A stretch of DNA of 64,000 nt from Minisyncoccia bacterium (GTDB lineage Bacteria > Patescibacteriota > Minisyncoccia > Phycocordibacterales > PALSA-1337), in assembly GCA_044228445.1 (NCBI GenBank), contig JBGAUV010000001.1, positions 143,827 through 207,826 of the forward strand, given 5' to 3'. Of the stretch, positions 3,267-51,636 are shown piece by piece. Position 1 is the first letter of the stretch. The number at the start of each line of letters is the position of its first letter. The position numbers and the translations under genes are program-made. Below the pieces are notes generated by a model that saw only the letters and a list, made by a program, of their open reading frames with translations, made no database searches and had not been told where the DNA came from.

Positions 3267-4199
3267 CTATCCAAATGATAGCTTGTCTATATCTTCTCCC
3301 ATGGATTCAGTTCTCATGGAACGAATGTATTTCATTGTCATTAAAATACTGGTATGACCCAACAGTTTTTGTATCTTGAAGGCGCTTACATTGTTCTCGT
3401 CGAGTTTGCAGGCAAAAGTATGTCGAAACATGTGGAGGTGTAGTTTGACCCCCGACTTTTTTATAAGAGCATTTGTCCAGTGTTTTAAACCTTGACGGCT
3501 CAATCCCTTGTCTCCTTTGTTGGAGGCTATCAAACATTCCGTTCGTAAGCCGAGCGCCTCCCTTGCTTCAAAGTACTCCTGTATGTGTAAGAGTAGAGTG
3601 GGGTGAATTTTGAGCTTCCTAGTAATCTTGGATTTCGAGGTTTCTCCTCTTATCGTCATGACAGCTCTATCCTTGTTAAAATCAGAAACACGTAGAGATA
3701 TAAATTCACCCTTTCTTATTCCCAGAAATAATAAAAGACTCACCATCATAGTATCCCGTCGCCGGATAAATGAGTTACTCGATTTTAGTACGATTGCGCT
3801 ATAAATTTTTTGAATATCAGAATCTTCTATTTTTCGAAAATCATCATACTTTACGCTAGGTGGTCTTATGTCATTTAAAGGATTAACAGATATACAACCT
3901 TTTTTCTCTAGCCAATTAAAAAATACATTCAATTTACTCCACTGCGTTTTAATAGTTGAGTTCTTTACTCCTTTCTTTATTTTATTTTTTCCGACTATTC
4001 TCGTTCGAGTCTGGATTCGTTTGAAAAACTCTATAAGCATTTCGGTGCTTAAAAACTTAAGTGTAGAAATTTCTGGCATTATTTTTAAAAAGAGATTGAA
4101 TACAGCTCTATAACCCCTGAGCGTTTCAGGGCTTAGTCGTGTAGAGTATTGCATTACATCCTCAAACTCATTAAAGAGTTTTCGTAGATCATTCTCCAT
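3267..4199 (-). CDS. Tyrosine-type site-specific recombinase/integrase
   Basis: C-terminal catalytic region ...HLHMFRHTFACKL...LLGHTSILMTMKYIRS (R..H..R..Y); N-terminal SAM-like core-binding domain. Confidence 0.9.
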   Translation of the reverse strand: MENDLRKLFNEFEDVMQYSTRLSPETLRGYRAVFNLFLKIMPEISTLKFLSTEMLIEFFKRIQTRTRIVGKNKIKKGVKNSTIKTQWSKLNVFFNWLEKKGCISVNPLNDIRPPSVKYDDFRKIEDSDIQKIYSAIVLKSSNSFIRRRDTMMVSLLLFLGIRKGEFISLRVSDFNKDRAVMTIRGETSKSKITRKLKIHPTLLLHIQEYFEAREALGLRTECLIASNKGDKGLSRQGLKHWTNALIKKSGVKLHLHMFRHTFACKLDENNVSAFKIQKLLGHTSILMTMKYIRSMRTESMGEDIDKLSFG

Positions 4200-5174: not shown

Positions 5175-6032
5175 TTATCCCTTTTCTTTTGTTGATGGTT
5201 GAGGTTTCTTTGCCAGCCACTGACTCAAGTACCACGCTCCGAAAAGCGAGATAGCAACGCCAGTCCACTGAACAAATGTGAGGTGTTCTCCGAGCATGAA
5301 GTATGCCCCGATGATGACCGCAGGAGTTTCCCCCTGAGCTAAGACACTGGCTTCAGTTATTCGAAGGTTCTCAAAGGCCAGCATGTTTGCTATCCAATAG
5401 AGAAAACCTCCGACGAACGCAAAGCCGAGAAGCAGAACTGTAAGCTTGGGAGTCATGGTGCTGATCAAGGGCGTATTAACGCTTAAGATCAGTCCAAGTG
5501 TTCCCATGCCAATCCCTGCAAAAAACCCTTTCTGCAAAGATGTAGTTTTCGCTTTTGCGAACAACTCGTACAGGACGCCGCTCATTACTGTTCCGAAAAC
5601 ACTCCAGACGAATCCTTCCCATTGGAAGAGTCCACCCTTGCGTGCAATCAGCACTCCGCCGAGCATAAGCACAAGGCCGATGATTGAAGCCTCTGAAATC
5701 TTTCGTCCCAGAAATAAACTGATGGCGAAATTAATAAGAGGTGTCGCGGTAATGATGATGATCGTGGGACCTGCGCCCCAATGCCGGATACCCTGGAAAA
5801 GTCCCAGCGTTGCAAATGGCAGCGTGATTGCGATCAGCCAGGTGTATTTGTCCACCTTGCCGATAACTCCACGGAGTCCAATGAATGCCGCGATGGTAGT
5901 CATGAATCCACGGAATATCATGAGTTGTTCCGGAGTGAACATGTGAAGGACGTTGACGAACGGGAGGGCGAGCCCTGCTGTAAGCCAAATCCCAACTACT
6001 CCGAAAAGACCGATAAAAGTCTTTGGTTTCAA
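5175..6032 (-). CDS. EamA/DMT-family transporter (10 TM, drug/metabolite exporter)
   Basis: Two internally repeated 5-TM halves with glycine-rich helices typical of EamA; GC-rich. Confidence 0.8.
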   Translation of the reverse strand: MKPKTFIGLFGVVGIWLTAGLALPFVNVLHMFTPEQLMIFRGFMTTIAAFIGLRGVIGKVDKYTWLIAITLPFATLGLFQGIRHWGAGPTIIIITATPLINFAISLFLGRKISEASIIGLVLMLGGVLIARKGGLFQWEGFVWSVFGTVMSGVLYELFAKAKTTSLQKGFFAGIGMGTLGLILSVNTPLISTMTPKLTVLLLGFAFVGGFLYWIANMLAFENLRITEASVLAQGETPAVIIGAYFMLGEHLTFVQWTGVAISLFGAWYLSQWLAKKPQPSTKEKG

Positions 6033-6182: not shown

Positions 6183-8054
6183 ATGAAAAAACAGCATTGG
6201 ATCATCCCGCTTCTCTTGGTGGCATTCATCAGGGCGGAATTCACCACAGTCCAGGCCTACTCGGCTTGGGACCAGTCGCAGGTCACGTATGATGCCTCTC
6301 GGGGTGTTTACGTCGATCACTACAAAATCCCTTTGGACAATTTCATTGCAGCAGGTGCGGCCAGTAACCCTGACCAAGCCAAAGAAATCGCTGCAATGTA
6401 TAACGGTCCTCGGGACATTCCGGCGAAGCGAAAGCTCGTCGTGAAGTTTCGGACAGACGTGTTCCGTAAGGAAGAGAACTACGCATGCGCAAGTATGATG
6501 TTTCTCACCAAGCCTGTCTCGAAGCGTCGTCTCGTTCTCGTGAACGTCGAACAGACAATTAACGAGAATATCCCAACTGACGATCGTCAGTATCGGGCCT
6601 GGCCTCATCTCGGACTTCTCTTTGTGGGCACAGCTGCTCAAGAAGAAGGCTGGGAGGTAGTCATGTGGGACGAGCTCGTCAAAGGCTTCGCGCCGATGGA
6701 GCAGCTCGTTCAGCCAGGTGACGTTGTTGGTTTCAGTTGTGTTGTGACAGGAATGGAACGTAGCATTGAGTTGGCTCGGAAAGCAAAGGAACTTGATGCT
6801 CGGTATGTGATCGTGGGAAATGATTCCGCGATCTTCCGAGCAAACCAGATTCTAGCGCTGCCCGACAAGCCGGTTGATGTTGTGTTCACTTCGAATAGCC
6901 TCACGGCCATTCGGAGATTCTTCCGAGAGATTGAAAACGCAAATCTCGAATCGCTGCAAATTCCTGGTGTCCAAGTGACATTGGGGCAAGTGCCGCAATC
7001 GAATGAGCGTGATCGTCTCTTGGTGGATCTTTCCATTCGCAAGCGCGACAAAGCTGAAGGACGGTTTGAAAACGACGACGTGTTCGTTGTTCCGAAGCTC
7101 GATCTCTATCCGCACTGGAATGAGGTCTGGTCCAACTACCGCGCGACGTTCGGACACAAGCACAGTAATCCTGATACGGTGAAGAACGGCATGAGCCTCT
7201 TCGCCCAGGGTTGCACCCGAACTCGTGGAAGTGATGTTTGCAGCTACTGCACCATCTACGGCGTTGCGGACATCCGCATGCCACAGAGGGAATACCTTCG
7301 TCGGACCGCTGAGGCCTACAAAGCTTTCGGCATCGACATGGTGTTCAACGTAACTGACAGCGTCTACGAGATGGGCGGTGTGGCTAAAGCGCTCCAGGAG
7401 CTCGGTATTACCTGGAATGCAATGACCATCTACGGTCGATCGCAGGGAATAACTCAGAACCCAGGTCTTCTCGAACAATGGCAACGAGTCGCAACAGAGC
7501 GACTCCTCGTCAACGTTGGGATGGACTCGGGAGACGACAAACTTCTGCGAGAAGGAGTTGTGAAATCCTCGATCAACAGAAAGAGGACTCGCCTTGAGGA
7601 AAACCAAGAGGCGGTGCGACTCATCCGGCAAGCCGGTGCGCATCTTCACTACTCACTCATCTTCGGAACGCCCGGCGAGACATTGGAGACCTGCGAAAGC
7701 AGTATCCGGTTTCTCGAGTGGACGATTGCGACACTCGGTCACCAGTTGGACATCTGCGAAACAGACATCTACTGGCTTAACTTCGGGTCACCTGCAAGCA
7801 AGGTGTTCCATGACTATTCGGAAGCGCAGCGACTTGCTGCGATGGCCGGAAAGTCGATCTCCAGAGAGGAGTGGTACGAAAACTTCGCTCGTCACCAAGA
7901 GGCACTCGTCGTGCCCGAGGCGACGGAAGAAGCCTGGTACCGCCACTTCACGAAGATCGATCTTGCGACTGCGCAGGCTTATAACCAGCGTTGCGTCGAG
8001 ATCATGGCTCGCCATAACGGCAGCATTCGAGGTCGTGCGTACAAGCCGATCTAA
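6183..8054 (+). CDS. B12-binding-domain radical-SAM-like enzyme with atypical cysteine motif and a signal-peptide-like N-terminus
   Basis: PHLGLLFVGTAAQEEGWEVVMWDE...GFSCVVTGMERSIELARKAKELDARYVIVGNDSA resembles the cobalamin-binding domain of class B rSAMs; cysteine cluster is C-x8-C-x2-C (GCTRTRGSDVCSYC) instead of CxxxCxxC; N-terminus MKKQHWIIPLLLVAFIRAEFTTVQA/YS looks like a Sec signal; ~55% GC. Confidence 0.5.
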   Translation: MKKQHWIIPLLLVAFIRAEFTTVQAYSAWDQSQVTYDASRGVYVDHYKIPLDNFIAAGAASNPDQAKEIAAMYNGPRDIPAKRKLVVKFRTDVFRKEENYACASMMFLTKPVSKRRLVLVNVEQTINENIPTDDRQYRAWPHLGLLFVGTAAQEEGWEVVMWDELVKGFAPMEQLVQPGDVVGFSCVVTGMERSIELARKAKELDARYVIVGNDSAIFRANQILALPDKPVDVVFTSNSLTAIRRFFREIENANLESLQIPGVQVTLGQVPQSNERDRLLVDLSIRKRDKAEGRFENDDVFVVPKLDLYPHWNEVWSNYRATFGHKHSNPDTVKNGMSLFAQGCTRTRGSDVCSYCTIYGVADIRMPQREYLRRTAEAYKAFGIDMVFNVTDSVYEMGGVAKALQELGITWNAMTIYGRSQGITQNPGLLEQWQRVATERLLVNVGMDSGDDKLLREGVVKSSINRKRTRLEENQEAVRLIRQAGAHLHYSLIFGTPGETLETCESSIRFLEWTIATLGHQLDICETDIYWLNFGSPASKVFHDYSEAQRLAAMAGKSISREEWYENFARHQEALVVPEATEEAWYRHFTKIDLATAQAYNQRCVEIMARHNGSIRGRAYKPI

Positions 8055-43116: not shown

Positions 43117-43779
43117 TTGAATGATGTTATTCGTGCTAAAATATGTAGAGTCATTTTTATGGAAACAAAAAATATTAAAAAAATTTATTCTACAAATGAT
43201 TTTTTAATAAGATCTGTTTTGCGCGGTATTTTAGAAAAAAAACGAGAGCAATATAGAAAACAAGGTCATAAGGCAGAAATTTTTGATGAGCTTGGTGTAC
43301 AACATGGGGCAAATAGAGTTGACTACGCTATTGTGAATGGAATCATGTGTGGCTTCGAAATAAAAAGTGATCGCGACACGTTGGACCGTCTACCAGAACA
43401 GGTAAAAGAATTTAGTGAAGTATTTGATGAGTTAACTCTTGTTGTTGGAAAAAAACATCTCTATCACGCAATTCATCAGATACCAGATTGGTGGGGTGTT
43501 TGGCTTGCAAAGGAAGATGGGACTGGCTTAGTGGAGATTCAAGTTATCCGCGAGCCTCAGAAAAATAAGTACCAGGATATTAAATCCATCGCTAGATTGC
43601 TTTGGAAAGAAGAAGCTCTGAGAATTTTAGAAGAACGCAACGAAGCAAAGGGTTTAAGAAATAAATCTAGGGAAATTATCTATACAAGGATTAAAGATGT
43701 CTTTGCTTCAGAATTGGATACTTTCAAAGCAAGAGTAAGTCTTACTTTGACTTCGAGAGAAGGTTGGAGAGTTGATTAA
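43117..43779 (+). CDS. PD-(D/E)xK nuclease-fold protein (sce7726-like)
   Basis: RVDYAIVNG...GFEIKSDRD gives a D...E.K catalytic signature. Confidence 0.45.
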   Translation: MNDVIRAKICRVIFMETKNIKKIYSTNDFLIRSVLRGILEKKREQYRKQGHKAEIFDELGVQHGANRVDYAIVNGIMCGFEIKSDRDTLDRLPEQVKEFSEVFDELTLVVGKKHLYHAIHQIPDWWGVWLAKEDGTGLVEIQVIREPQKNKYQDIKSIARLLWKEEALRILEERNEAKGLRNKSREIIYTRIKDVFASELDTFKARVSLTLTSREGWRVD

Positions 43780-44857
43780 TCACCATTGTGATATGGTGAT
43801 TAATACCTGCTGTTAGCCATGTTTGAGGGCTACCAGTGGTCTTTGCATTCACGTCAGCTTTTTCATGTATATATTCATCTCCAAAACTGAAATCTTTTCC
43901 TTTGAAAAAATTCTGTCCAGCAAGAAGTTGTGCTTGTGCGGGGTACTGTTTATATCCTGCACCTTTTTTATTTTTCAGTCCTTCTCCTCTTAATACTTCC
44001 CAAGTATCTTCATTCGTATAGCGAATGCTAGCGCTCGTGTTAACCCCGACCATATGACCATAATAAATAGGGTGTTGAATCGTATAGTCAGAAAATATAG
44101 GCTTTCTAGTTATTGTTGGATTTCCAAGTATATCCTTCCAAACCTTCCAATCGTATCTTTCGATTTTGTAGTGCCCATGTTTTTCATAGTCGGATAAGTC
44201 TCTGGGAAATGAGCCTCCGGTTAGTATTACAGAACGCCATTTATCAAGATGAGGTATCAATGAAAGTTTGCTTGATACAGCTTGAGATGTCATTTGTTGA
44301 TCTACTATCTTTAAATCGATTAGAAGATCAATGTTGCTATGGTCCAAACCCTCATCTTTTATAAACTCATTTATCTTTGTCGCTGTTTCGTTGTTTAGGT
44401 GTGAATCATCAATGCGAATACACAGACCTCTATCATTAGACTTGGCAAATTTCATAGCGATTTTTTTAGTCTCAGCGTCTGCATCCGTACTTATGGCCGG
44501 AATGATATAAGTAACTGGAATGGAGAACAGATCGGACTGGTTTGCTGTAGTCAGTATCTGATCAAAAGCAGATGCACGTATATCACCATCCAAGAGGTGA
44601 ACATCAACAAAGAATGGTTCTTTGCCCCAGTGCTCAATAATGCCAGATGTTATTTCTGGTAGGTTTCTTAAAAACTTAGTCTTTGAGTCTTCAAGAATTT
44701 TTTTATAGTCAGTTTTATCAATCTTGGGTGGTGGCAAGATGAACTCAAACAATGGTGTAACGTTTGTACGGTCCTTACTGAACAAATGTTTGAGAGCTCG
44801 CGTCTCAGCTGGTCTCCATCGGATTATAGGCACGTAAGATTTTATTGGATTTTTCAT
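43742..44857 (-). CDS. Beta-protein-family (sce7725-like) protein
   Basis: N-terminus KSYVPIIRWRPAETRALKHL matches the Beta_protein family opening (YVPILK.K..E..AL); convergent with and overlapping the sce7726-like gene by 38 nt. Confidence 0.45.
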   Translation of the reverse strand: MKNPIKSYVPIIRWRPAETRALKHLFSKDRTNVTPLFEFILPPPKIDKTDYKKILEDSKTKFLRNLPEITSGIIEHWGKEPFFVDVHLLDGDIRASAFDQILTTANQSDLFSIPVTYIIPAISTDADAETKKIAMKFAKSNDRGLCIRIDDSHLNNETATKINEFIKDEGLDHSNIDLLIDLKIVDQQMTSQAVSSKLSLIPHLDKWRSVILTGGSFPRDLSDYEKHGHYKIERYDWKVWKDILGNPTITRKPIFSDYTIQHPIYYGHMVGVNTSASIRYTNEDTWEVLRGEGLKNKKGAGYKQYPAQAQLLAGQNFFKGKDFSFGDEYIHEKADVNAKTTGSPQTWLTAGINHHITMVINQLSNLLSKSK

Positions 44858-44878
44858 GTTGGGTAATTTTAATAGTAA

Positions 44879-46111
44879 TTATTTGCTAGCGAATATATCC
44901 GGGAAGAGCCATTGGACACGAGACTCAGCATTCGTAACTATTTTATTAAGGTAATAATAGTTTTGATGTTTGAAGCGAATGATTCCAGCGACTACGGATA
45001 TGTGTACACCTAACTCATTTGCAAGACTTTGTGCGGCCATAGCTGAAGGTATGACTTTTGCGGGACTGATTTCCCATTTTGCCTTCGGTAGAATAGCTTC
45101 CTCAGCAAGCTCGTCAGCTTCTTCTTCTGTATCTTTAGAACTAAACTCAACACCTTTTTTGTCTTGGAGTTTTTCATCAAAGAACGAATCAAAGTCGCCA
45201 CCATAGTGTTTGATTATGTGTGCCAATTCGTGAAGAAGGGTGAACCAGAAATTATCTAGTCGATCGTGTCTTAGAGTTAGTCCAATTATAGGATTTTCTT
45301 TTTCAGTTAATATTGCGGCACCATCGAGGTGTGTTTTAGGAAGATGGGGTTCAATAACAAGTTTGATACCTACGTCTGCTAACATTTTAATAGCTTTTCT
45401 CGGACCATCTGTGTCTACACTGAGCTTGATTAAAGCTCTCATAAAAGAAATATCTAATGAACCATGTTTATATTTAACAGGAACTTTCATTTTGTCGGCT
45501 TTCTGCACTACACGAATTTGCCAAGCAAGCAAAGCATCTTTATCGGTTAAGATTGCTGATCTGTAGCTTGTTTTTCTTAATAACGCAACAGGTTGAAGTC
45601 TTAATGATCCTAATGAAGTAAATAAGCCATCAAGCAAATCTGATTTTGTATTGTTCTTTAGTGTTTTCTTACCAAAATATCCTCGGTTTTCCATTAACTT
45701 AACAAGTCGAATATCCCAACGCTCATATTTTGAGTCTGGGTTAGCGTCAGTCTTTTGAATTAATACTTTTGCAGGTATACCGAGACCTGTTTCAAGGGCA
45801 CGTATCATCTCGAGAGATAATGGTCGTTTGCCTGAAAGTACTTCTGAGACTCTGCTACGACTACCGATGTAAGGTATTAGATCTGCTGGTTTGAGATCGG
45901 CTTGTTCCATTCGGAAATTGATAGCTTCAATGGGGGTGGGTAGTGATTGGGGGAGTGTCCTAGATTCATATTCTTGAATAAGAGTAGTAAGGAGTGTAAG
46001 TTGTTCACCTTCAACAGATTCTGGATTAGGATCAAGATTCATTAACTCCTCAACTGATTTGAGGGCGTCACGATAGTCTTGTTCGGTTTTTATTACTTTG
46101 ATGTTGTTCAT
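44879..46111 (-). CDS. HigA-like antitoxin: N-terminal HTH fused to DUF955/ImmA-like Zn-peptidase domain
   Basis: HELAHIIKH (HExxH) in the C-terminal half; immediately downstream of the HigB toxin gene. Confidence 0.65.
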   Translation of the reverse strand: MNNIKVIKTEQDYRDALKSVEELMNLDPNPESVEGEQLTLLTTLIQEYESRTLPQSLPTPIEAINFRMEQADLKPADLIPYIGSRSRVSEVLSGKRPLSLEMIRALETGLGIPAKVLIQKTDANPDSKYERWDIRLVKLMENRGYFGKKTLKNNTKSDLLDGLFTSLGSLRLQPVALLRKTSYRSAILTDKDALLAWQIRVVQKADKMKVPVKYKHGSLDISFMRALIKLSVDTDGPRKAIKMLADVGIKLVIEPHLPKTHLDGAAILTEKENPIIGLTLRHDRLDNFWFTLLHELAHIIKHYGGDFDSFFDEKLQDKKGVEFSSKDTEEEADELAEEAILPKAKWEISPAKVIPSAMAAQSLANELGVHISVVAGIIRFKHQNYYYLNKIVTNAESRVQWLFPDIFASK

Positions 46112-46118
46112 ATTTTTG

Positions 46119-46406
46119 CTAACCTATATCCCAGTTATCATATTCCTTGTGTGTGCCGACCTTTTTTATAAGCACAACCTGGTTTTTGTAGTTTATCTGT
46201 ACTAGGACTCGGTACTTATTGTGACAGATGTCGAATATTACATGCTGGTTCTTTACTAAACTTGCCTTCCTATATCTTTCCTTGAGTTCATGAGGGGTTT
46301 GCCACTTAGCATTCTCAACTTCAGCTTCCCACGAGTCTATGTGGGACCTTGCATCGGTGTGCCTCTCTTTGAAATCTTGTGTAATTTTTTTGCCTAGTAA
46401 TTTCAT
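46119..46406 (-). CDS. higB: HigB-family toxin (RelE/ParE superfamily)
   Basis: FDICHNKYRVLVQINYKNQVVLIKKVGTHKEYDNWD. Confidence 0.7.
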   Translation of the reverse strand: MKLLGKKITQDFKERHTDARSHIDSWEAEVENAKWQTPHELKERYRKASLVKNQHVIFDICHNKYRVLVQINYKNQVVLIKKVGTHKEYDNWDIG

Positions 46407-47043: not shown

Positions 47044-47072
47044 TTGACAATAGTGCAATATGGGTGTATAAT
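47044..47072 (+). promoter_or_regulatory. Perfect consensus sigma70 promoter upstream of the DGR target gene
   Basis: TTGACAatagtgcaatatgggtgTATAAT (17-nt spacer); 5' UTR contains a 9-bp perfect stem GGTCATAGC...GCTATGACC. Confidence 0.65.
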
Positions 47073-47212
47073 AGTTACATAGTTCTTTGATAAGAATTGC
47101 GAGTTGGTCATAGCGAAAAGCGGCTCAATCTTGGGCCCCTCCTTGCTATGACCACACCGGCCCATAGTGCCTCCTCGGCGTAGAGGGAAACCAAAAAGAA
47201 AGGAAACTGACC

Positions 47213-47926
47213 ATGAATACCATGCTCAGCAAGGCGCTCCGCGAATTCACAACCGGACCGCTCAATCAGCTCATTGTGAACCTCGGTGGCCAGGAAGGCG
47301 ACCAATGGGAAGAGGAACTGAAGAAGTTTCTCCGCAAGGAACCCTGTTGGAGTAACGGACAGGTCGCGCAAGTGACCCAACCGAAAACCAAGCCCTCGAT
47401 CCTCGAGCTCGTCTCGACTGTCGTGGTCTCGGCAACCACCAGCAAGTTCATCGCCAAAGATAAGTTCGTGGTCAACACCAAGCGCAACGCTCCGGTGAAG
47501 ATCTCGGCAGTCTGGGACAACTTCACCAGCTGGTTCCTGTCGGGCGACGGCAAGACCGAAGACCCTATCAGCGAACAGACGCTCCGCTACCACAAATTGC
47601 GGAAGTCTTCAGTTGATGGTCCCATCATTACCGAACTGGGTGGCGAGGAGAAATCCGAAACCACTTTGACGGAAATGTTCTCCTTGATGGAGAAGCAGAA
47701 GAATGGTGAAGACGGTGTTCTCTTGAACAACGGCTACGCCAACATCTTCTACATTCGGGACCAGAATGGTGTGCTTCGCGCGGTCGACGTGTGCTGGTTC
47801 GACGACGGCTGGGACGTCGATGCGTTCTCCGTCGAGAACCCGGGCAGGTGGTCTGATGGCTACCAGGTGTTCTCTCGCAATTCTGTTCTCGAATCCTCGG
47901 AACCTTCGGCTCCGGCGCAAGCCTGA
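47213..47926 (+). CDS. DGR target (variable) protein with C-terminal variable region
   Basis: C-terminus ...GVLRAVDVCWFDDGWDVDAFSVENPGRWSDGYQVFSRN is the VR counterpart of the TR; ~55% GC in an AT-rich genome. Confidence 0.85.
   Translation: MNTMLSKALREFTTGPLNQLIVNLGGQEGDQWEEELKKFLRKEPCWSNGQVAQVTQPKTKPSILELVSTVVVSATTSKFIAKDKFVVNTKRNAPVKISAVWDNFTSWFLSGDGKTEDPISEQTLRYHKLRKSSVDGPIITELGGEEKSETTLTEMFSLMEKQKNGEDGVLLNNGYANIFYIRDQNGVLRAVDVCWFDDGWDVDAFSVENPGRWSDGYQVFSRNSVLESSEPSAPAQA
47768..47877 (+). repeat. DGR variable repeat (VR), 110 bp
   Basis: Aligns to the TR with 14 mismatches, every one at a TR adenine (AAC to GAC/TGC/TTC/GGC/TAC; AAT to GAT/TCT). Confidence 0.9.
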
Positions 47927-48243
47927 TCCTTTGTCCCTTGGACCCTTTGACCCTCGGTCTGCTTCGGCGGATTGGGGGTCAATTTTTTATATTTAAATTT
48001 CTCTTGCTATACTTATTTCCGAAATCATGTGTTACGTGACGGTTACGGCTTTCACGTCATGGTCTTAAGATATTTTTCTCGAGAGTCACACTGGGTATGC
48101 CTTGTGTGAGAGTGGGGAAAGTCTCTTCAAAAAAATAACAAGAATTGGTATATGAGATTAGCGGACTTTGAGGTCCCAGATAAAATTCAGCTGGTCATGG
48201 TTTGGCTGGCGGTGATATAGATGATCTTGTATACGATAACGCT

Positions 48244-48353
48244 GGTGTGCTTCGCGCGGTCAACGTGAACTGGAACGACGACGGCTGGAACGTCAATGCG
48301 AACTCCGTCGAGAACCCGAACAGGTGGAATGATGGCAACCAGGTGTTCTCTCG
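48244..48353 (+). repeat. DGR template repeat (TR), 110 bp
   Basis: Asn-codon-rich (AAC/AAT) copy of the VR; the enclosing ORF 48202..48483 is not considered coding. Confidence 0.9.
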
Positions 48354-48376
48354 AAACTGTTGGTTTTCTCCTCGGC

Positions 48377-48768
48377 TTAAGGTCGGGGAGTTTTTGCTTG
48401 CAAACCCTTCTTCCAACCACCAAGTTGTCGCCCTATTTCCTCAAGTTTTCCGATTAAGTCCGAGTATGTATCAGTTGGAATAATTTTACTTTCCCATGCG
48501 AGTTGTACAAAGAACTTCACAATATCAAGTTTTGTGATGGCTTTGTTTAATATTGGTATTTTGTGTTCAGGTGGGAGATAAGAAAGACAGAATGTGTATT
48601 CAAGTACATCAAGAAAAGCCTGTTCAATTCTGTTTCCAATTCCATACCGCTCGACTTTCGGAAAATCACGATAGATAGAGAGCCAAAAACGATATGTCTC
48701 TTTCGATTTGAGAATTACCTGTGGTAATTCTCGGGGGGGGTAATATGATCCTTATTAGTATGAGTCAT
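48377..48768 (-). CDS. avd: DGR accessory variability determinant (Avd), antisense to TR/RT; frame interrupted at a G8 tract
   Basis: Minus-strand translation ...ELPQVILKSKETYRFWLSIYRDFPKVERYGIGNRIEQAFLDVLEYTF...VKFFVQLAWESKII...IGKLEEIGRQLGGWKKGLQAK is an Avd four-helix bundle; no canonical in-frame start, but the ATG at 48768..48766 joins this frame if the 48733..48740 G8 run were G9. Confidence 0.65.
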
Positions 48769-49755
48769 GAGTATAAGAATATCATATCCATCAAAAATCT
48801 ATGCGATGCGTGGACCGAATTTATATGTGGCAAGAAATCTAAAAAGGACGTTGCTGAATTTTCTCTGAATCTCTCTCAAAACATTTTCAAATTGCACGAG
48901 GAACTGCGAACAAAAACGTATAGACATGGTGCATACGAAGCTTTTTCGATAAGTGATCCGAAACCGAGAAGTATTCACAAGGCTACGGTCCGAGATAGAT
49001 TATTGCATCATGCTATTTACAGGATTTTGTATCCCTATTTTGATAAAAAGTTTATTTATGATTCTTACTCCTGTCGACAGTTCAAAGGAACACATCGAGC
49101 GTTAAATCGGTTCAATGATTTCGTGATGAAAGTATCACAAAGTAATAGCAGGGCATGCTGGGTTTTGAAATGCGATGTAAGAAAGTTTTTCGCATCTATT
49201 GATCATGAAAAGCTTATTGAAATATTCAAGCGACATATTAATGATATGGAAACGATCTGGCTTGTTGAACGCATTGTTGAGAGTTTTCAAAGTACTGGTC
49301 CAGGAAAGGGTTTGCCTTTAGGTAACCTGACCTCGCAACTCTTGGTAAATGTTTACATGAATGAGTTCGACCAGTTTGTGAAGCACAAGCTCAAAGCTAA
49401 GTATTATATTCGGTATGCCGATGACTTCGTTATTATGCACCATGAGAAAGATGTGTTGGTGGATATTCTGCCAAAGGTCCAGAGCTTTCTCAGTGAGCAA
49501 CTAAAGCTGTCTCTTCATCCAGATAAGGTGTTTATAAAGACAGCTTCATCAGGCGTAGATTTTCTGGGCTGGGTCCATTTTCCGCACCATCGAGTGATAC
49601 GGACAACAACAAAAAATCGTATGTTCAAGAAAATCAAAGATTCTCAAGAAAAGCCGGAAGTCGTCCAGTCGTACCTCGGACTTTTGAGTCATGGTAATGG
49701 TTGGAAATTGAAACAGAGAGTTAAGGATAAAATAGTGAAGACAAGGGTGGGGTAA
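48745..49755 (+). CDS. DGR reverse transcriptase
   Basis: RT motifs LKCDVRKFFASIDH, LPLGNLTSQLLVNVYMNEFD (DGR-type [LI]GxxxSQ), YIRYADDFVIM (YxDD), LHPDKVFI, FLGW; start taken at ATG 48745 (or 48760). Confidence 0.9.
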   Translation: MILISMSHEYKNIISIKNLCDAWTEFICGKKSKKDVAEFSLNLSQNIFKLHEELRTKTYRHGAYEAFSISDPKPRSIHKATVRDRLLHHAIYRILYPYFDKKFIYDSYSCRQFKGTHRALNRFNDFVMKVSQSNSRACWVLKCDVRKFFASIDHEKLIEIFKRHINDMETIWLVERIVESFQSTGPGKGLPLGNLTSQLLVNVYMNEFDQFVKHKLKAKYYIRYADDFVIMHHEKDVLVDILPKVQSFLSEQLKLSLHPDKVFIKTASSGVDFLGWVHFPHHRVIRTTTKNRMFKKIKDSQEKPEVVQSYLGLLSHGNGWKLKQRVKDKIVKTRVG

Positions 49756-50254
49756 CCCAATAAATTTACCCGTAATAACGGGAAATTAACGGGAAGTCAC
49801 TTTTTTGCAACATAGTGAGTGAGAGTGTGGGGTAAGACTGATAAAGCAGTTAAAAAGCAGTCTCGCACTCCGTTGTTAATACAACGTGAAAACAACGGCA
49901 GTTATTGCCGTTAAAAAACAGTGAAAAAACGGTTAACACCCGCCCTTTAAAAAGGGTAAAAAAGGGCGTAGTTATTATAAATACAGATCTGATACAGAGA
50001 AGAAATTACTTTTTAGATACAGTGAGTGCTGGTGTAGGGTAACAATCTTTGAAGCTTGGAATGTAGATCGTAGCATCGTCGATTTTTCGGAAGATTTCTG
50101 TAACTTGAGCGACCACGCGACCCCAAGAAATGTCTCAAAAATATAGAATTATTATTAGTATGTTTTAATAAAAAACAGTTTTAAATTAATTTGATTTAAT
50201 CTAATACTAAACAAAATTCTATTGTATAATATAAACATAATATTATATTAAAAA

Positions 50255-50749
50255 ATGCTTAATTTTGGCTCATATTTATTATCAAGTGCTTATTCTTCAA
50301 TTTTACCTCTATTTAATTTAGGTAGTTCTGTTGCTTCTGTAAGTAATGCTGGCGATTCTTTGAATGCTATTCCTGTGGCTATATTTACTTTATTTGGTTT
50401 CTTTTGGTTTATTACATTGGCTTTAGGAATACTTATTTATGTATCAATGTGGAAAGTATTTGTCAAAGCGGGGAAACCTGGTTGGGCTTCACTTATTCCT
50501 ATTTATAACGTTATTGTTTTATTTGAAATAACAAACAAACCTACTTGGTGGATTATTCTAATGTTTATTCCATTTGTAAACATCGTTATTGCTTTTATTT
50601 TAACTCATGATTTAGCAATTTCTTTCGGTAAGGATATTGGTTTTGCAATAGGGCTTATATTATTACCTTACGTATTTTATCCAATACTTGCTTTTAGTGA
50701 TGCAAAATACGTTGGTATAAATTCAAATAACGCTATGTCTAATAAATGA
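50255..50749 (+). CDS. Membrane protein (DUF5684-like)
   Basis: KAGKPGWASLIPIYNVIVLFEITNKPTWWIILMFIP. Confidence 0.4.
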   Translation: MLNFGSYLLSSAYSSILPLFNLGSSVASVSNAGDSLNAIPVAIFTLFGFFWFITLALGILIYVSMWKVFVKAGKPGWASLIPIYNVIVLFEITNKPTWWIILMFIPFVNIVIAFILTHDLAISFGKDIGFAIGLILLPYVFYPILAFSDAKYVGINSNNAMSNK

Positions 50750-51636
50750 AAAAAAGTATCAAAATAATAATTGCAGTTATATTAGCAATAATACTTGGTA
50801 TTATTTTGTATAAAAATTATTATTTTTTCTTACCAAATTTATTTATTTCAAAACCTCCAGTTTCAATTTACCCTGAAACTATTTACCCAGGAGATCCTAT
50901 TTTTATTACTATAAACGCTAGTTCAACACCCAAGAAAATAAGTTTTGATAATAAAGTTATTCCAAGTTTTTATTTTAACGGTGCAAACAATGCTCTATTT
51001 GCAACTGATTTTTATGAAAAGAAATTGCAACATAGAGTCTCAGTCGAACTTAATAATGGAATGATAATCAATAAAGATATAGTTTTGACCAGTAGAGAAA
51101 AAATAGAAAAACCACTAGGTATACCAGAAAAACTCGGAGGCAATACTCCACAAGCAGGGAAGGCTCTTGTAAATAATTTAGCAAATGAAAACTACGTTTT
51201 AAATAATATTCAGAGTTCTTCAAAAATGATATGGAAACAACCTTTTGCAAAACCACTTCAAAATTTATTTATAACTGATACTTATGGTTATGATAGAAAA
51301 ACAGTTGGCTATACTATAGTTCATAAAGGAACAGATTTTAGAGCTGAAATTGGTACACCTGTATATGCTATGAATGATGGAATTGTAAGAATAGCGAGAA
51401 ATTTTACTGTATATGGAAATGTTATTGCTATTGATCATGGACAAGGATTAATTACTTTATATATGCATTTATCAAAGATAAATGTTAAACAAGGTGATAT
51501 GGTAAAAATAGGTGAAAATATCGGTGAGAGTGGTCAAACAGGATATGTATCAGCACCACATTTACATATAAGTATAAAGATAAATGGTATATCTATAGAC
51601 CCTGCAACATTTATGAAATTTTTCAAGATTATATAA
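50746..51636 (+). CDS. M23-family peptidase (LytM-like)
   Basis: HKGTDFRAEIGTPVYAMNDGIV...IDHGQGLITLYMHLS...GESGQTGYVSAPHLH. Confidence 0.9.
   Translation: MKKSIKIIIAVILAIILGIILYKNYYFFLPNLFISKPPVSIYPETIYPGDPIFITINASSTPKKISFDNKVIPSFYFNGANNALFATDFYEKKLQHRVSVELNNGMIINKDIVLTSREKIEKPLGIPEKLGGNTPQAGKALVNNLANENYVLNNIQSSSKMIWKQPFAKPLQNLFITDTYGYDRKTVGYTIVHKGTDFRAEIGTPVYAMNDGIVRIARNFTVYGNVIAIDHGQGLITLYMHLSKINVKQGDMVKIGENIGESGQTGYVSAPHLHISIKINGISIDPATFMKFFKII

Follow-up and report, generated by a model that had tools for sequence, protein, structure and literature searches.

We found that the avd gene of a DGR on a Patescibacteria contig is interrupted, between its start codon and the region encoding the four-helix body of Avd, by a run of eight cytosines, and that a length-variable, non-triplet repeat in avd is a clade-wide feature of approximately 100 related elements. 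This tract is likely to be a slipped-strand, phase-variable frame switch on avd, which would gate the mutagenesis performed by the DGR. We demonstrate the anatomy of the element, the conservation of the repeat site, the polymorphism of repeat length, its consequences for the reading frame and the integrity of the out-of-frame (OFF) alleles.

Organization of the DGR

The window, by which we mean the whole 64 kb stretch of DNA analysed, contains a complete DGR at 47213-49755 in the order target/VR, TR, reverse-strand avd and RT, with the following parts:

47213..47926, + strand: DGR target gene (237 aa), an ORF carrying the VR near its C-terminus
47767-47880, + strand: VR, the repeat pairing with the TR
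48243-48356, + strand: TR, the 114-nt counterpart of the VR, 87% identical to it, with the mismatches at TR adenines
48368..48400, + strand: hairpin CTCCTCGG...CCGGGGAG followed by TTTTTG, directly 3' of the TR and overlapping the opposite-strand avd stop codon
48377..48733, - strand: Avd body, an open frame whose first codon, CGA (Arg), takes in the last C of the tract and which ends with the stop codon at 48377-48379
48733..48740, both strands: putative frame-switch repeat, G8 on the + strand and C8 in the avd sense
48741..48768, - strand: avd leader, consisting of the ATG at 48768-48766 and 9 further codons (MTHTNKDHI-T), antisense to the first RT codons
48760..49755, + strand: DGR reverse transcriptase (RVT_1 PF00078, 96.5 bits, E = 2.4e-27)

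The VR is placed in the last third of the target ORF (47213-47926), for which a Pfam search gave no match. Among the 18 core mismatches between TR and VR, 15 are A-to-N changes, and the TR is located ~400 nt upstream of the RT. With an RVT_1 RT, an adenine-type TR/VR pair and a reverse-strand Avd, the element fulfils the structural criteria of a DGR of architecture B3. This architecture, TR-(avd)-RT, represents 90% of CPR DGRs (Wu et al. 2018, PMC5758913), and the order of target/VR, TR, reverse avd and RT is common to the window and to the CPR B3 elements of that study. The original prediction considered an antisense avd to be unusual, which failed for this clade, where it is the rule of B3. 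Across the 80 related loci recovered from genomes, avd was on the opposite strand and immediately upstream of RT in all 75 in which it was detected, whereas in the remaining five the contig ends shortly upstream of RT.

The avd reading frame is broken at the G8 tract

The G8 run at 48733-48740 of the + strand is the sole G/C run of at least 7 nt in the 64 kb window. On the minus strand, the frame of the Avd body (RELPQVILKSKETYRF...KTPRP, then the stop codon at 48377-48379) has no ATG, GTG or TTG from the upstream stop codons to residue ~84, and the sole upstream avd ATG (48768-48766) is one base off this frame. In the G8 state the frame of that ATG reads MTHTNKDHITPPENYHR and then terminates at 48717-48715, the two frames meeting within the run itself. 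One added C (G9 on the + strand) fuses leader and body into a 130-aa protein that matches Pfam bAvd PF22296 with 47.1 bits (cutoff 40), and homologous 130-aa proteins start with M.H..K..ITPPRELPQVILK. The leader is invariant in the lineage of the window, so that the in-frame lengths are only C9 or C12; we infer from the sequence alone that the G8 allele of the window is an OFF length for avd. Dinucleotide shuffles of the window contained on average 0.33 runs of this kind, with at least one in 25 of 100 shuffles, and the chance test within the window alone was therefore not significant; the significance of the tract derives from its position and from the comparison with relatives, and not from its rarity in the window.

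The start codons of avd and RT overlap head-to-head in ATGAGTCAT at 48760-48768, and this ATGNNNCAT 5'-overlap is kept throughout the window lineage. Each promoter must therefore sit inside the coding region of the other gene. More distant loci seem to have longer overlaps, of ~21 nt in L026 as judged by eye. All of the claims that the original prediction made about the sequence held, namely the position of the G8 run, the out-of-frame ATG, the rescue by G9, the 4-nt spacing from the tract to an RT ATG and the palindrome through which the two start codons overlap.

The repeat lies outside the predicted Avd fold

The AlphaFold model of P0002, a close in-frame homologue, is a four-helix bundle (pLDDT 88) with helices at residues 17-34, 38-62, 67-93 and 99-126. 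Residues 1-16, which hold the leader and the prolines encoded by the repeat, form no helix in the model and have low confidence. Foldseek matched the model to Bordetella phage Avd (4dwl; TM 0.89, rmsd 1.6 Å), and the matches also included DGR RNP entries (8ub7 and related). The tract of ON alleles is translated, as PP, PPP or PPPP, and as a ~25-residue NQQSAIS repeat in L038. Since the model predicts that the repeat falls in a disordered tail before helix 1, its length and sequence would be tolerated in ON alleles, and we infer from the model and the sequence that it acts as a frame gate outside the Avd fold.

Compared with Avd of the Bordetella phage BPP-1 (4dwl; RT-Avd-RNA complex 8ub7), the four-helix fold, the bAvd family and the TR/RT adjacency are shared. 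The differences are a sequence identity of only 14%, the opposite-strand position of the window avd and a disordered N-terminal leader bearing the repeat. Among 119 homologues in the protein database, 45 have the leader and tract, the latter encoding one to four prolines, and 74 are N-terminally truncated gene calls. The avd gene of such elements is often missed or truncated by gene callers, and surveys may under-count Avd-containing DGRs. In the P0002 lineage, gene callers also give only a 170-aa RT, its true start being a GTG. In one locus of that lineage, L108 (Ga0209210_1001129, 536-1524), the RT matches in two frames, indicating a frameshift inside RT, and avd is in frame with G9.

A non-triplet repeat occupies the same site across the clade

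A search of the genome collection with the RT returned 80 Patescibacteria/CPR loci (RT identity 58-97%), and a metagenome scan contributed 27 loci from the window's own lineage. After removal of duplicates, 96 non-redundant loci remained (RT 58-99% identical), which were aligned on the Avd body to place the repeat. The site lies between a leader of ~5-13 codons and the conserved motif (R)ELPQVILK / LLPVLQK. The original prediction had proposed that the tract be compared in related DGR loci, and this comparison revealed a length-variable repeat at the same site in relatives. In 89 of the 96 loci the site is occupied by poly-C in the avd sense, 6-14 nt long with a mode of 10, the commonest tracts being C8 (15 loci), C9 (21), C10 (26) and C11 (14). 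One locus, L016, has the interrupted tract CCCTCCC. The site holds other repeats in six of the 96 loci, namely (CCAG)10 in L018, (CAATCAG)11 in L038, (CA)9 in L022, (CT)9 in L032, (AG)11 in L057 and (AG)7 in L066. All of the repeat units are of 1, 2, 4 or 7 nt and never of 3 or 6, and each unit gained or lost thus shifts the avd frame.

We also examined where comparable repeats occur in the loci as a whole. In 794 kb of locus sequence, 92 of the 99 G/C runs of at least 7 nt were at the avd 5' site, with two more representing the same site at contig edges, and 6 of the 13 SSRs with units of at least 2 nt were likewise at this site. The outgroup consisted of 80 loci on viral contigs that encode distant Avd homologues; they came from an Avd-profile scan and included 7 divergent B3-like loci. 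The avd 5' end was free of repeats in all 80, and their 385 kb contained merely 3 G/C runs of at least 7 nt. An exact-pattern scan of viral contigs gave no matches. In the viral B3-like loci the starts are back-to-back, with CAT and ATG adjacent or 4 nt apart, and there is no overlap and no leader or repeat.

A few repeats were observed elsewhere in the loci. L046 carries two extra G10 tracts (3404-3413 and 5253-5262); one of them, just after the first RT, abuts a downstream TATAAT that is separated by 9 nt from an ATG, and the other makes up the 3' arm of a hairpin that precedes the ATG of a second avd, which lies on the same strand and is part of a second DGR. These two tracts are possible candidates for promoter-type phase variation. 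Heptanucleotide repeats are found in the flanks of L088 ((TTGGAAA)4, 133-160), L035 ((ACTAGCT)4, 2706-2733) and L055 ((AGTCAAA)4, 1184-1211), and L012 has a G9 within a hairpin at 7071-7079; these flank repeats could be further contingency sites.

Tract length differs between near-identical strains

Within the window lineage, G8 is found in the window and in the independent assemblies L093, L098 and L101, G9 in L024, L082, L086 and L107, G10 in L002, L005, L096, L103 and L104, and G11 in L001, L003, L088, L091 and L105, with G12 occurring in the sister group. Such differences separate sequences that are otherwise almost the same, which shows polymorphism of repeat number among close relatives with conserved flanks. 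L098 (G8) and L107 (G9) are 100% identical over 1167 nt, L096 (G10) and L101 (G8) have 2 mismatches in 2011 nt, L100 (G11) and L106 (G12) have 4 mismatches in 2074 nt, and the trio L096/L101/L082 (G10/G8/G9) is 99.5-99.9% identical. Over 2324 nt, L093 (G8) and L107 (G9) differ only in the tract and in four VR positions, all of which are at TR adenines. No indels besides the tract were present in L098/L107, L096/L101, L100/L106 or L093/L107, the pairs involving L082 having one gap each, and A/T runs of up to 7 nt in the flanks were unchanged in the ungapped comparisons (L098/L107, L093/L107 and L100/L106).

The VR differences between L093 and L107 are all at TR adenines, and the DGR of this sister lineage, to which the evidence is limited, has therefore been active on the timescale of tract change. 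L096/L101 was left out of the VR comparison, as the ungapped alignment lost register upstream of the VR. An exact match to the RT protein from ATG 48745 identified one contig, L197, whose RT protein equals that of the window and whose avd and RT DNA is identical from the TR onward, except that it has G10 for G8. An exact look-up of the window RT ORF from GTG 48721 returned no record.

Frame states and integrity of OFF alleles

For 95 loci we called the frame of the leader ATG relative to that of the Avd body. The two are in frame in 21 loci, 32 loci need +1 nt and 35 need -1 nt, with 6 being ambiguous and 1 lacking an ATG. The ON state is not enriched (22% observed against 33% by chance, p = 0.02), and close relatives show a mixture of ON and OFF alleles. 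An open Avd body of 114-132 codons is retained in all 70 out-of-frame loci with complete sequence, and given these intact bodies it is very likely that the OFF loci are not pseudogenes. The loci with short or interrupted tracts (L084, L021 and L016, two of which are C6 and the last, L016, interrupted) are all in frame (Fisher p = 0.007, L016 included), as expected if only ON alleles survive the loss of repeat mutability.

Sequence context of the cassette

Directly downstream of the TR, a CTCC..GGAG hairpin with a U-run, equivalent to that at 48368-48400, is found with compensatory stem changes in 60 of 90 related loci. The hairpin at 48368-48400 was called terminator-like, and on the other strand it overlaps the stop and the C-terminal codons of avd. 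It is possibly the terminator of the TR RNA, implying a separate RT promoter, or else a spacer-like priming structure, and the near-invariant C-terminal K-T-P of Avd may be constrained by it.

The GC content is 50-57% in the target region (47050-48100) and 25-30% in the genes downstream of RT (50050-50950), the mean of the window being 36%. Most of the differences between L197 and the window fall in the target gene and upstream of the TR, avd and RT being identical. The DGR cassette could be compositionally foreign or mosaic. A 16-bp GC-rich hairpin with a T-run is located on the + strand at 47947-47982, 20 nt past the target stop and ~65 nt past the VR; it may be the terminator of the target gene, or may correspond to the inverted repeat that other DGRs carry downstream of IMH. 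Immediately upstream of the DGR, the minus strand encodes a HigB-type toxin (46119-46406), a 410-aa HTH + IrrE/M78 peptidase-like protein (44879-46111) and a 'Beta protein' PF14350 gene (43742-44857), and the region 43742-46406 bears a possible resemblance to a toxin-antitoxin or defence-island neighbourhood.

Proposed switch and its limits

In the mechanism that we propose, the G8/C8 tract would be a hypermutable simple-sequence repeat between the avd start codon and the four-helix body, in which slipped-strand mispairing during replication would add or remove repeat units. The number of units would decide whether the start codon and the Avd body share a reading frame, such that Avd would be made when in frame (ON) and a 17-residue peptide when out of frame (OFF). 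Avd is needed together with RT for DGR cDNA synthesis in the systems studied, as shown for Bordetella, and its loss or gain would switch the mutagenesis of target adenines stochastically and reversibly in a population. The window would be in the OFF state, from which the gain of one base would give the 130-aa protein. The mutational mechanism, the reversibility within a population, the dependence of RT on Avd and the function are all inferred. The main reading of the original prediction, that slipped-strand changes in tract length could turn Avd, and with it the DGR, on and off, is supported and generalized by the comparison of ~100 loci, with the function remaining an inference.

The sequence-level criteria for an SSR contingency locus are fulfilled, namely a non-triplet repeat, tract polymorphism, and ON and OFF states with intact OFF bodies, frequent reversible switching in a clonal population and an effect on mutagenesis being inferred. 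The general framework of SSR phase variation has been reviewed (PMC11868660). As in the poly-G loci of Campylobacter jejuni and its phages, Neisseria and Helicobacter and the tetranucleotide repeats of Haemophilus influenzae, a non-triplet repeat lies inside the 5' end of an ORF. Further likenesses to contingency loci are a poly-G/C of 8-13 nt in a low-GC genome, a repeat number that varies between near-identical strains, ON and OFF frames with an intact downstream ORF, and the replacement of one repeat type by another between lineages at the same site. Unlike in those loci, the switched gene is not a surface, restriction-modification or receptor gene but codes for the accessory factor of a retroelement, which in turn hypermutates another gene. 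The hosts here are uncultivated Patescibacteria, and the repeat lies in the 5'-overlap with a divergent RT gene; no switching rates or mixtures have been measured here.

Several observations speak against the switch or limit it. Only consensus assemblies were used, without read-level mixtures, and 78% of these are OFF, which is unexpected if Avd is often needed and would equally suit a recoding process that circumvents the DNA frame. The homopolymer tracts are all C in the avd sense and G in the RT sense, a strand bias that may reflect common ancestry or an extra RNA-level role on the RT strand. Long poly-G is error-prone in sequencing and some single lengths may be wrong, and the dependence of RT on Avd is assumed by analogy with Bordetella.

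Alternative explanations

One alternative is a sequencing or assembly error, the true genome having G9 and an intact avd. Sequencing chemistries are known to struggle with poly-G, and the four G9 alleles of the same lineage do encode the 130-aa protein. However, G8 occurs in three other independent assemblies, L197, whose module is identical to that of the window, has G10 and not G9, lengths of 6-14 nt and other repeat types over ~100 loci cannot all be errors, and the flanking A/T homopolymers of up to 7 nt are stable in the ungapped pairs. We consider this explanation very improbable; for this single assembly, the error alternative of the original prediction cannot be excluded without reads, even with G8 recurring in three others, and the switch reading would stand even if the G8 call of the window were wrong. 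Another possibility is that the DGR is dying and its avd decaying into a pseudogene, the frame being broken in the window and in most relatives. The intact bodies of all 70 complete OFF loci, in which the lesion is always the same repeat, the VR changes at TR adenines between otherwise identical contigs, which point to recent activity, and the intact RT leave almost no room for this view. The tract could also serve mainly the expression of RT on the + strand, as a Shine-Dalgarno-like G-run or a promoter spacer, with the effect on avd being incidental. It lies 4 nt before ATG 48745, all homopolymer tracts are G in the RT sense, the first in-frame RT ATG is at most 20 nt from the tract in most loci, and T-A-x-x-x-T is enriched at +1..+6 past it. 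Against this, the tract and the RT ATG are anywhere from 2 to 64 nt apart across the clade, the -10-like signal is mostly gone without the window's own lineage, there is no -35 element at usable spacing, repeats of the (CT)n, (CCAG)n-complement and heptamer types do not resemble an SD, and the position of the tract is fixed to the Avd body and not to RT. Moreover, the +4 ATG is ATA in the close relatives L093, L096, L098, L101 and L107, which have ATG/GTG at the equivalent of 48760, 19 nt from the tract; the conserved RT start is likely ATG 48760 (MSHEYKN...), with the in-frame ATG 48745 as an alternative. A main role in RT expression is thus very unlikely, and the Shine-Dalgarno role that the original prediction assigned to the tract is weakly supported. 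An RT promoter with the tract as its spacer was rejected as a candidate, since no promoter-like site was found at the tract and TTGAGA, 25 nt upstream, would require a spacer of at least 27 nt; such a promoter or spacer role is unsupported and not excluded. A secondary effect on RT is conceivable given the 5' overlap of the divergent genes.

Constitutive recoding is the remaining rival, in which RNA polymerase slippage or a ribosomal -1/+1 shift on C CCC CCC would yield in-frame Avd whatever the tract length; the tract would then set a low Avd:RT ratio and would not be a heritable switch, variation in the DNA being a neutral by-product. Recoding at homopolymers occurs in Thermus dnaX and in IS elements, and poly(A) rescue in insect endosymbionts. 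The ATG frame of the window, A-CC CCC CCC G, is a perfect X XXY YYZ heptamer from which a -1 shift leads into the Avd frame, tract lengths centre on 9-10 nt, which is about the length of the transcription hybrid, and 78% of consensus alleles are out of frame with conserved bodies. As at homopolymer recoding sites, a homopolymer of ~9-10 nt lies between two frames and out-of-frame alleles persist with intact downstream sequence. Unlike at those sites, no fixed frame relation exists among homologues (32 need +1, 35 need -1 and 21 are in frame), so that this criterion of recoding is not fulfilled and a single programmed ribosomal shift, including the programmed -1 frameshift that we considered as a candidate, is ruled out. 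As to a conserved slippery sequence, poly-C is present in 89 of 96 loci, with other repeats standing in at six; these 2-, 4- and 7-nt repeats are non-slippery for ribosomes, and those of 4 and 7 nt also for RNA polymerase. In addition, short or interrupted tracts are always in frame. Constitutive recoding is hence unlikely as the primary function, and transcriptional slippage may act as a leak over DNA switching. Such slippage leaves unexplained both the repeats of 4 and 7 nt and the tendency of short tracts to be in frame. We therefore retain the slipped-strand frame switch as the preferred reading.

Relation to previous work and biological meaning

The antisense avd of B3 elements was already known and slippage switches are known as such, so that it is the target gene that is new, which we regard as likely for the switch and as unproven in function. 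The searched text of Wu et al. (PMC5758913) contains no avd repeat, homopolymer or frameshift in this sense, its 'frameshift' hits being VR indels. Our literature search found no DGR or Avd paper dealing with a homopolymer, contingency locus or phase variation, prior notice in Paul et al. 2017 not being excluded, and the 2025 phase-variation review (PMC11868660) does not mention retroelements. According to a 2024 preprint on Bacteroides DGRs, the signals and regulation of mutagenic retrohoming are still undiscovered.

In a bolder reading, which we favour by a narrow margin, the DGRs of the whole Patescibacteria clade would be gated by a hypermutable avd repeat, a stochastic, heritable and reversible switch through which a subpopulation would diversify its target; as part of this reading, the tract in the 5' overlap might also modulate RT expression. 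If true, a repeat-based frame switch on avd would provide a testable regulation of DGR mutagenesis, an open question in the field, and would apply to the very large population of CPR/Patescibacteria DGRs. Tract length could then mark the activity state of DGRs at read level in metagenomes. The switch would extend contingency-locus biology from host-associated pathogens to uncultivated episymbionts, and would represent a case of one evolvability device controlling another.
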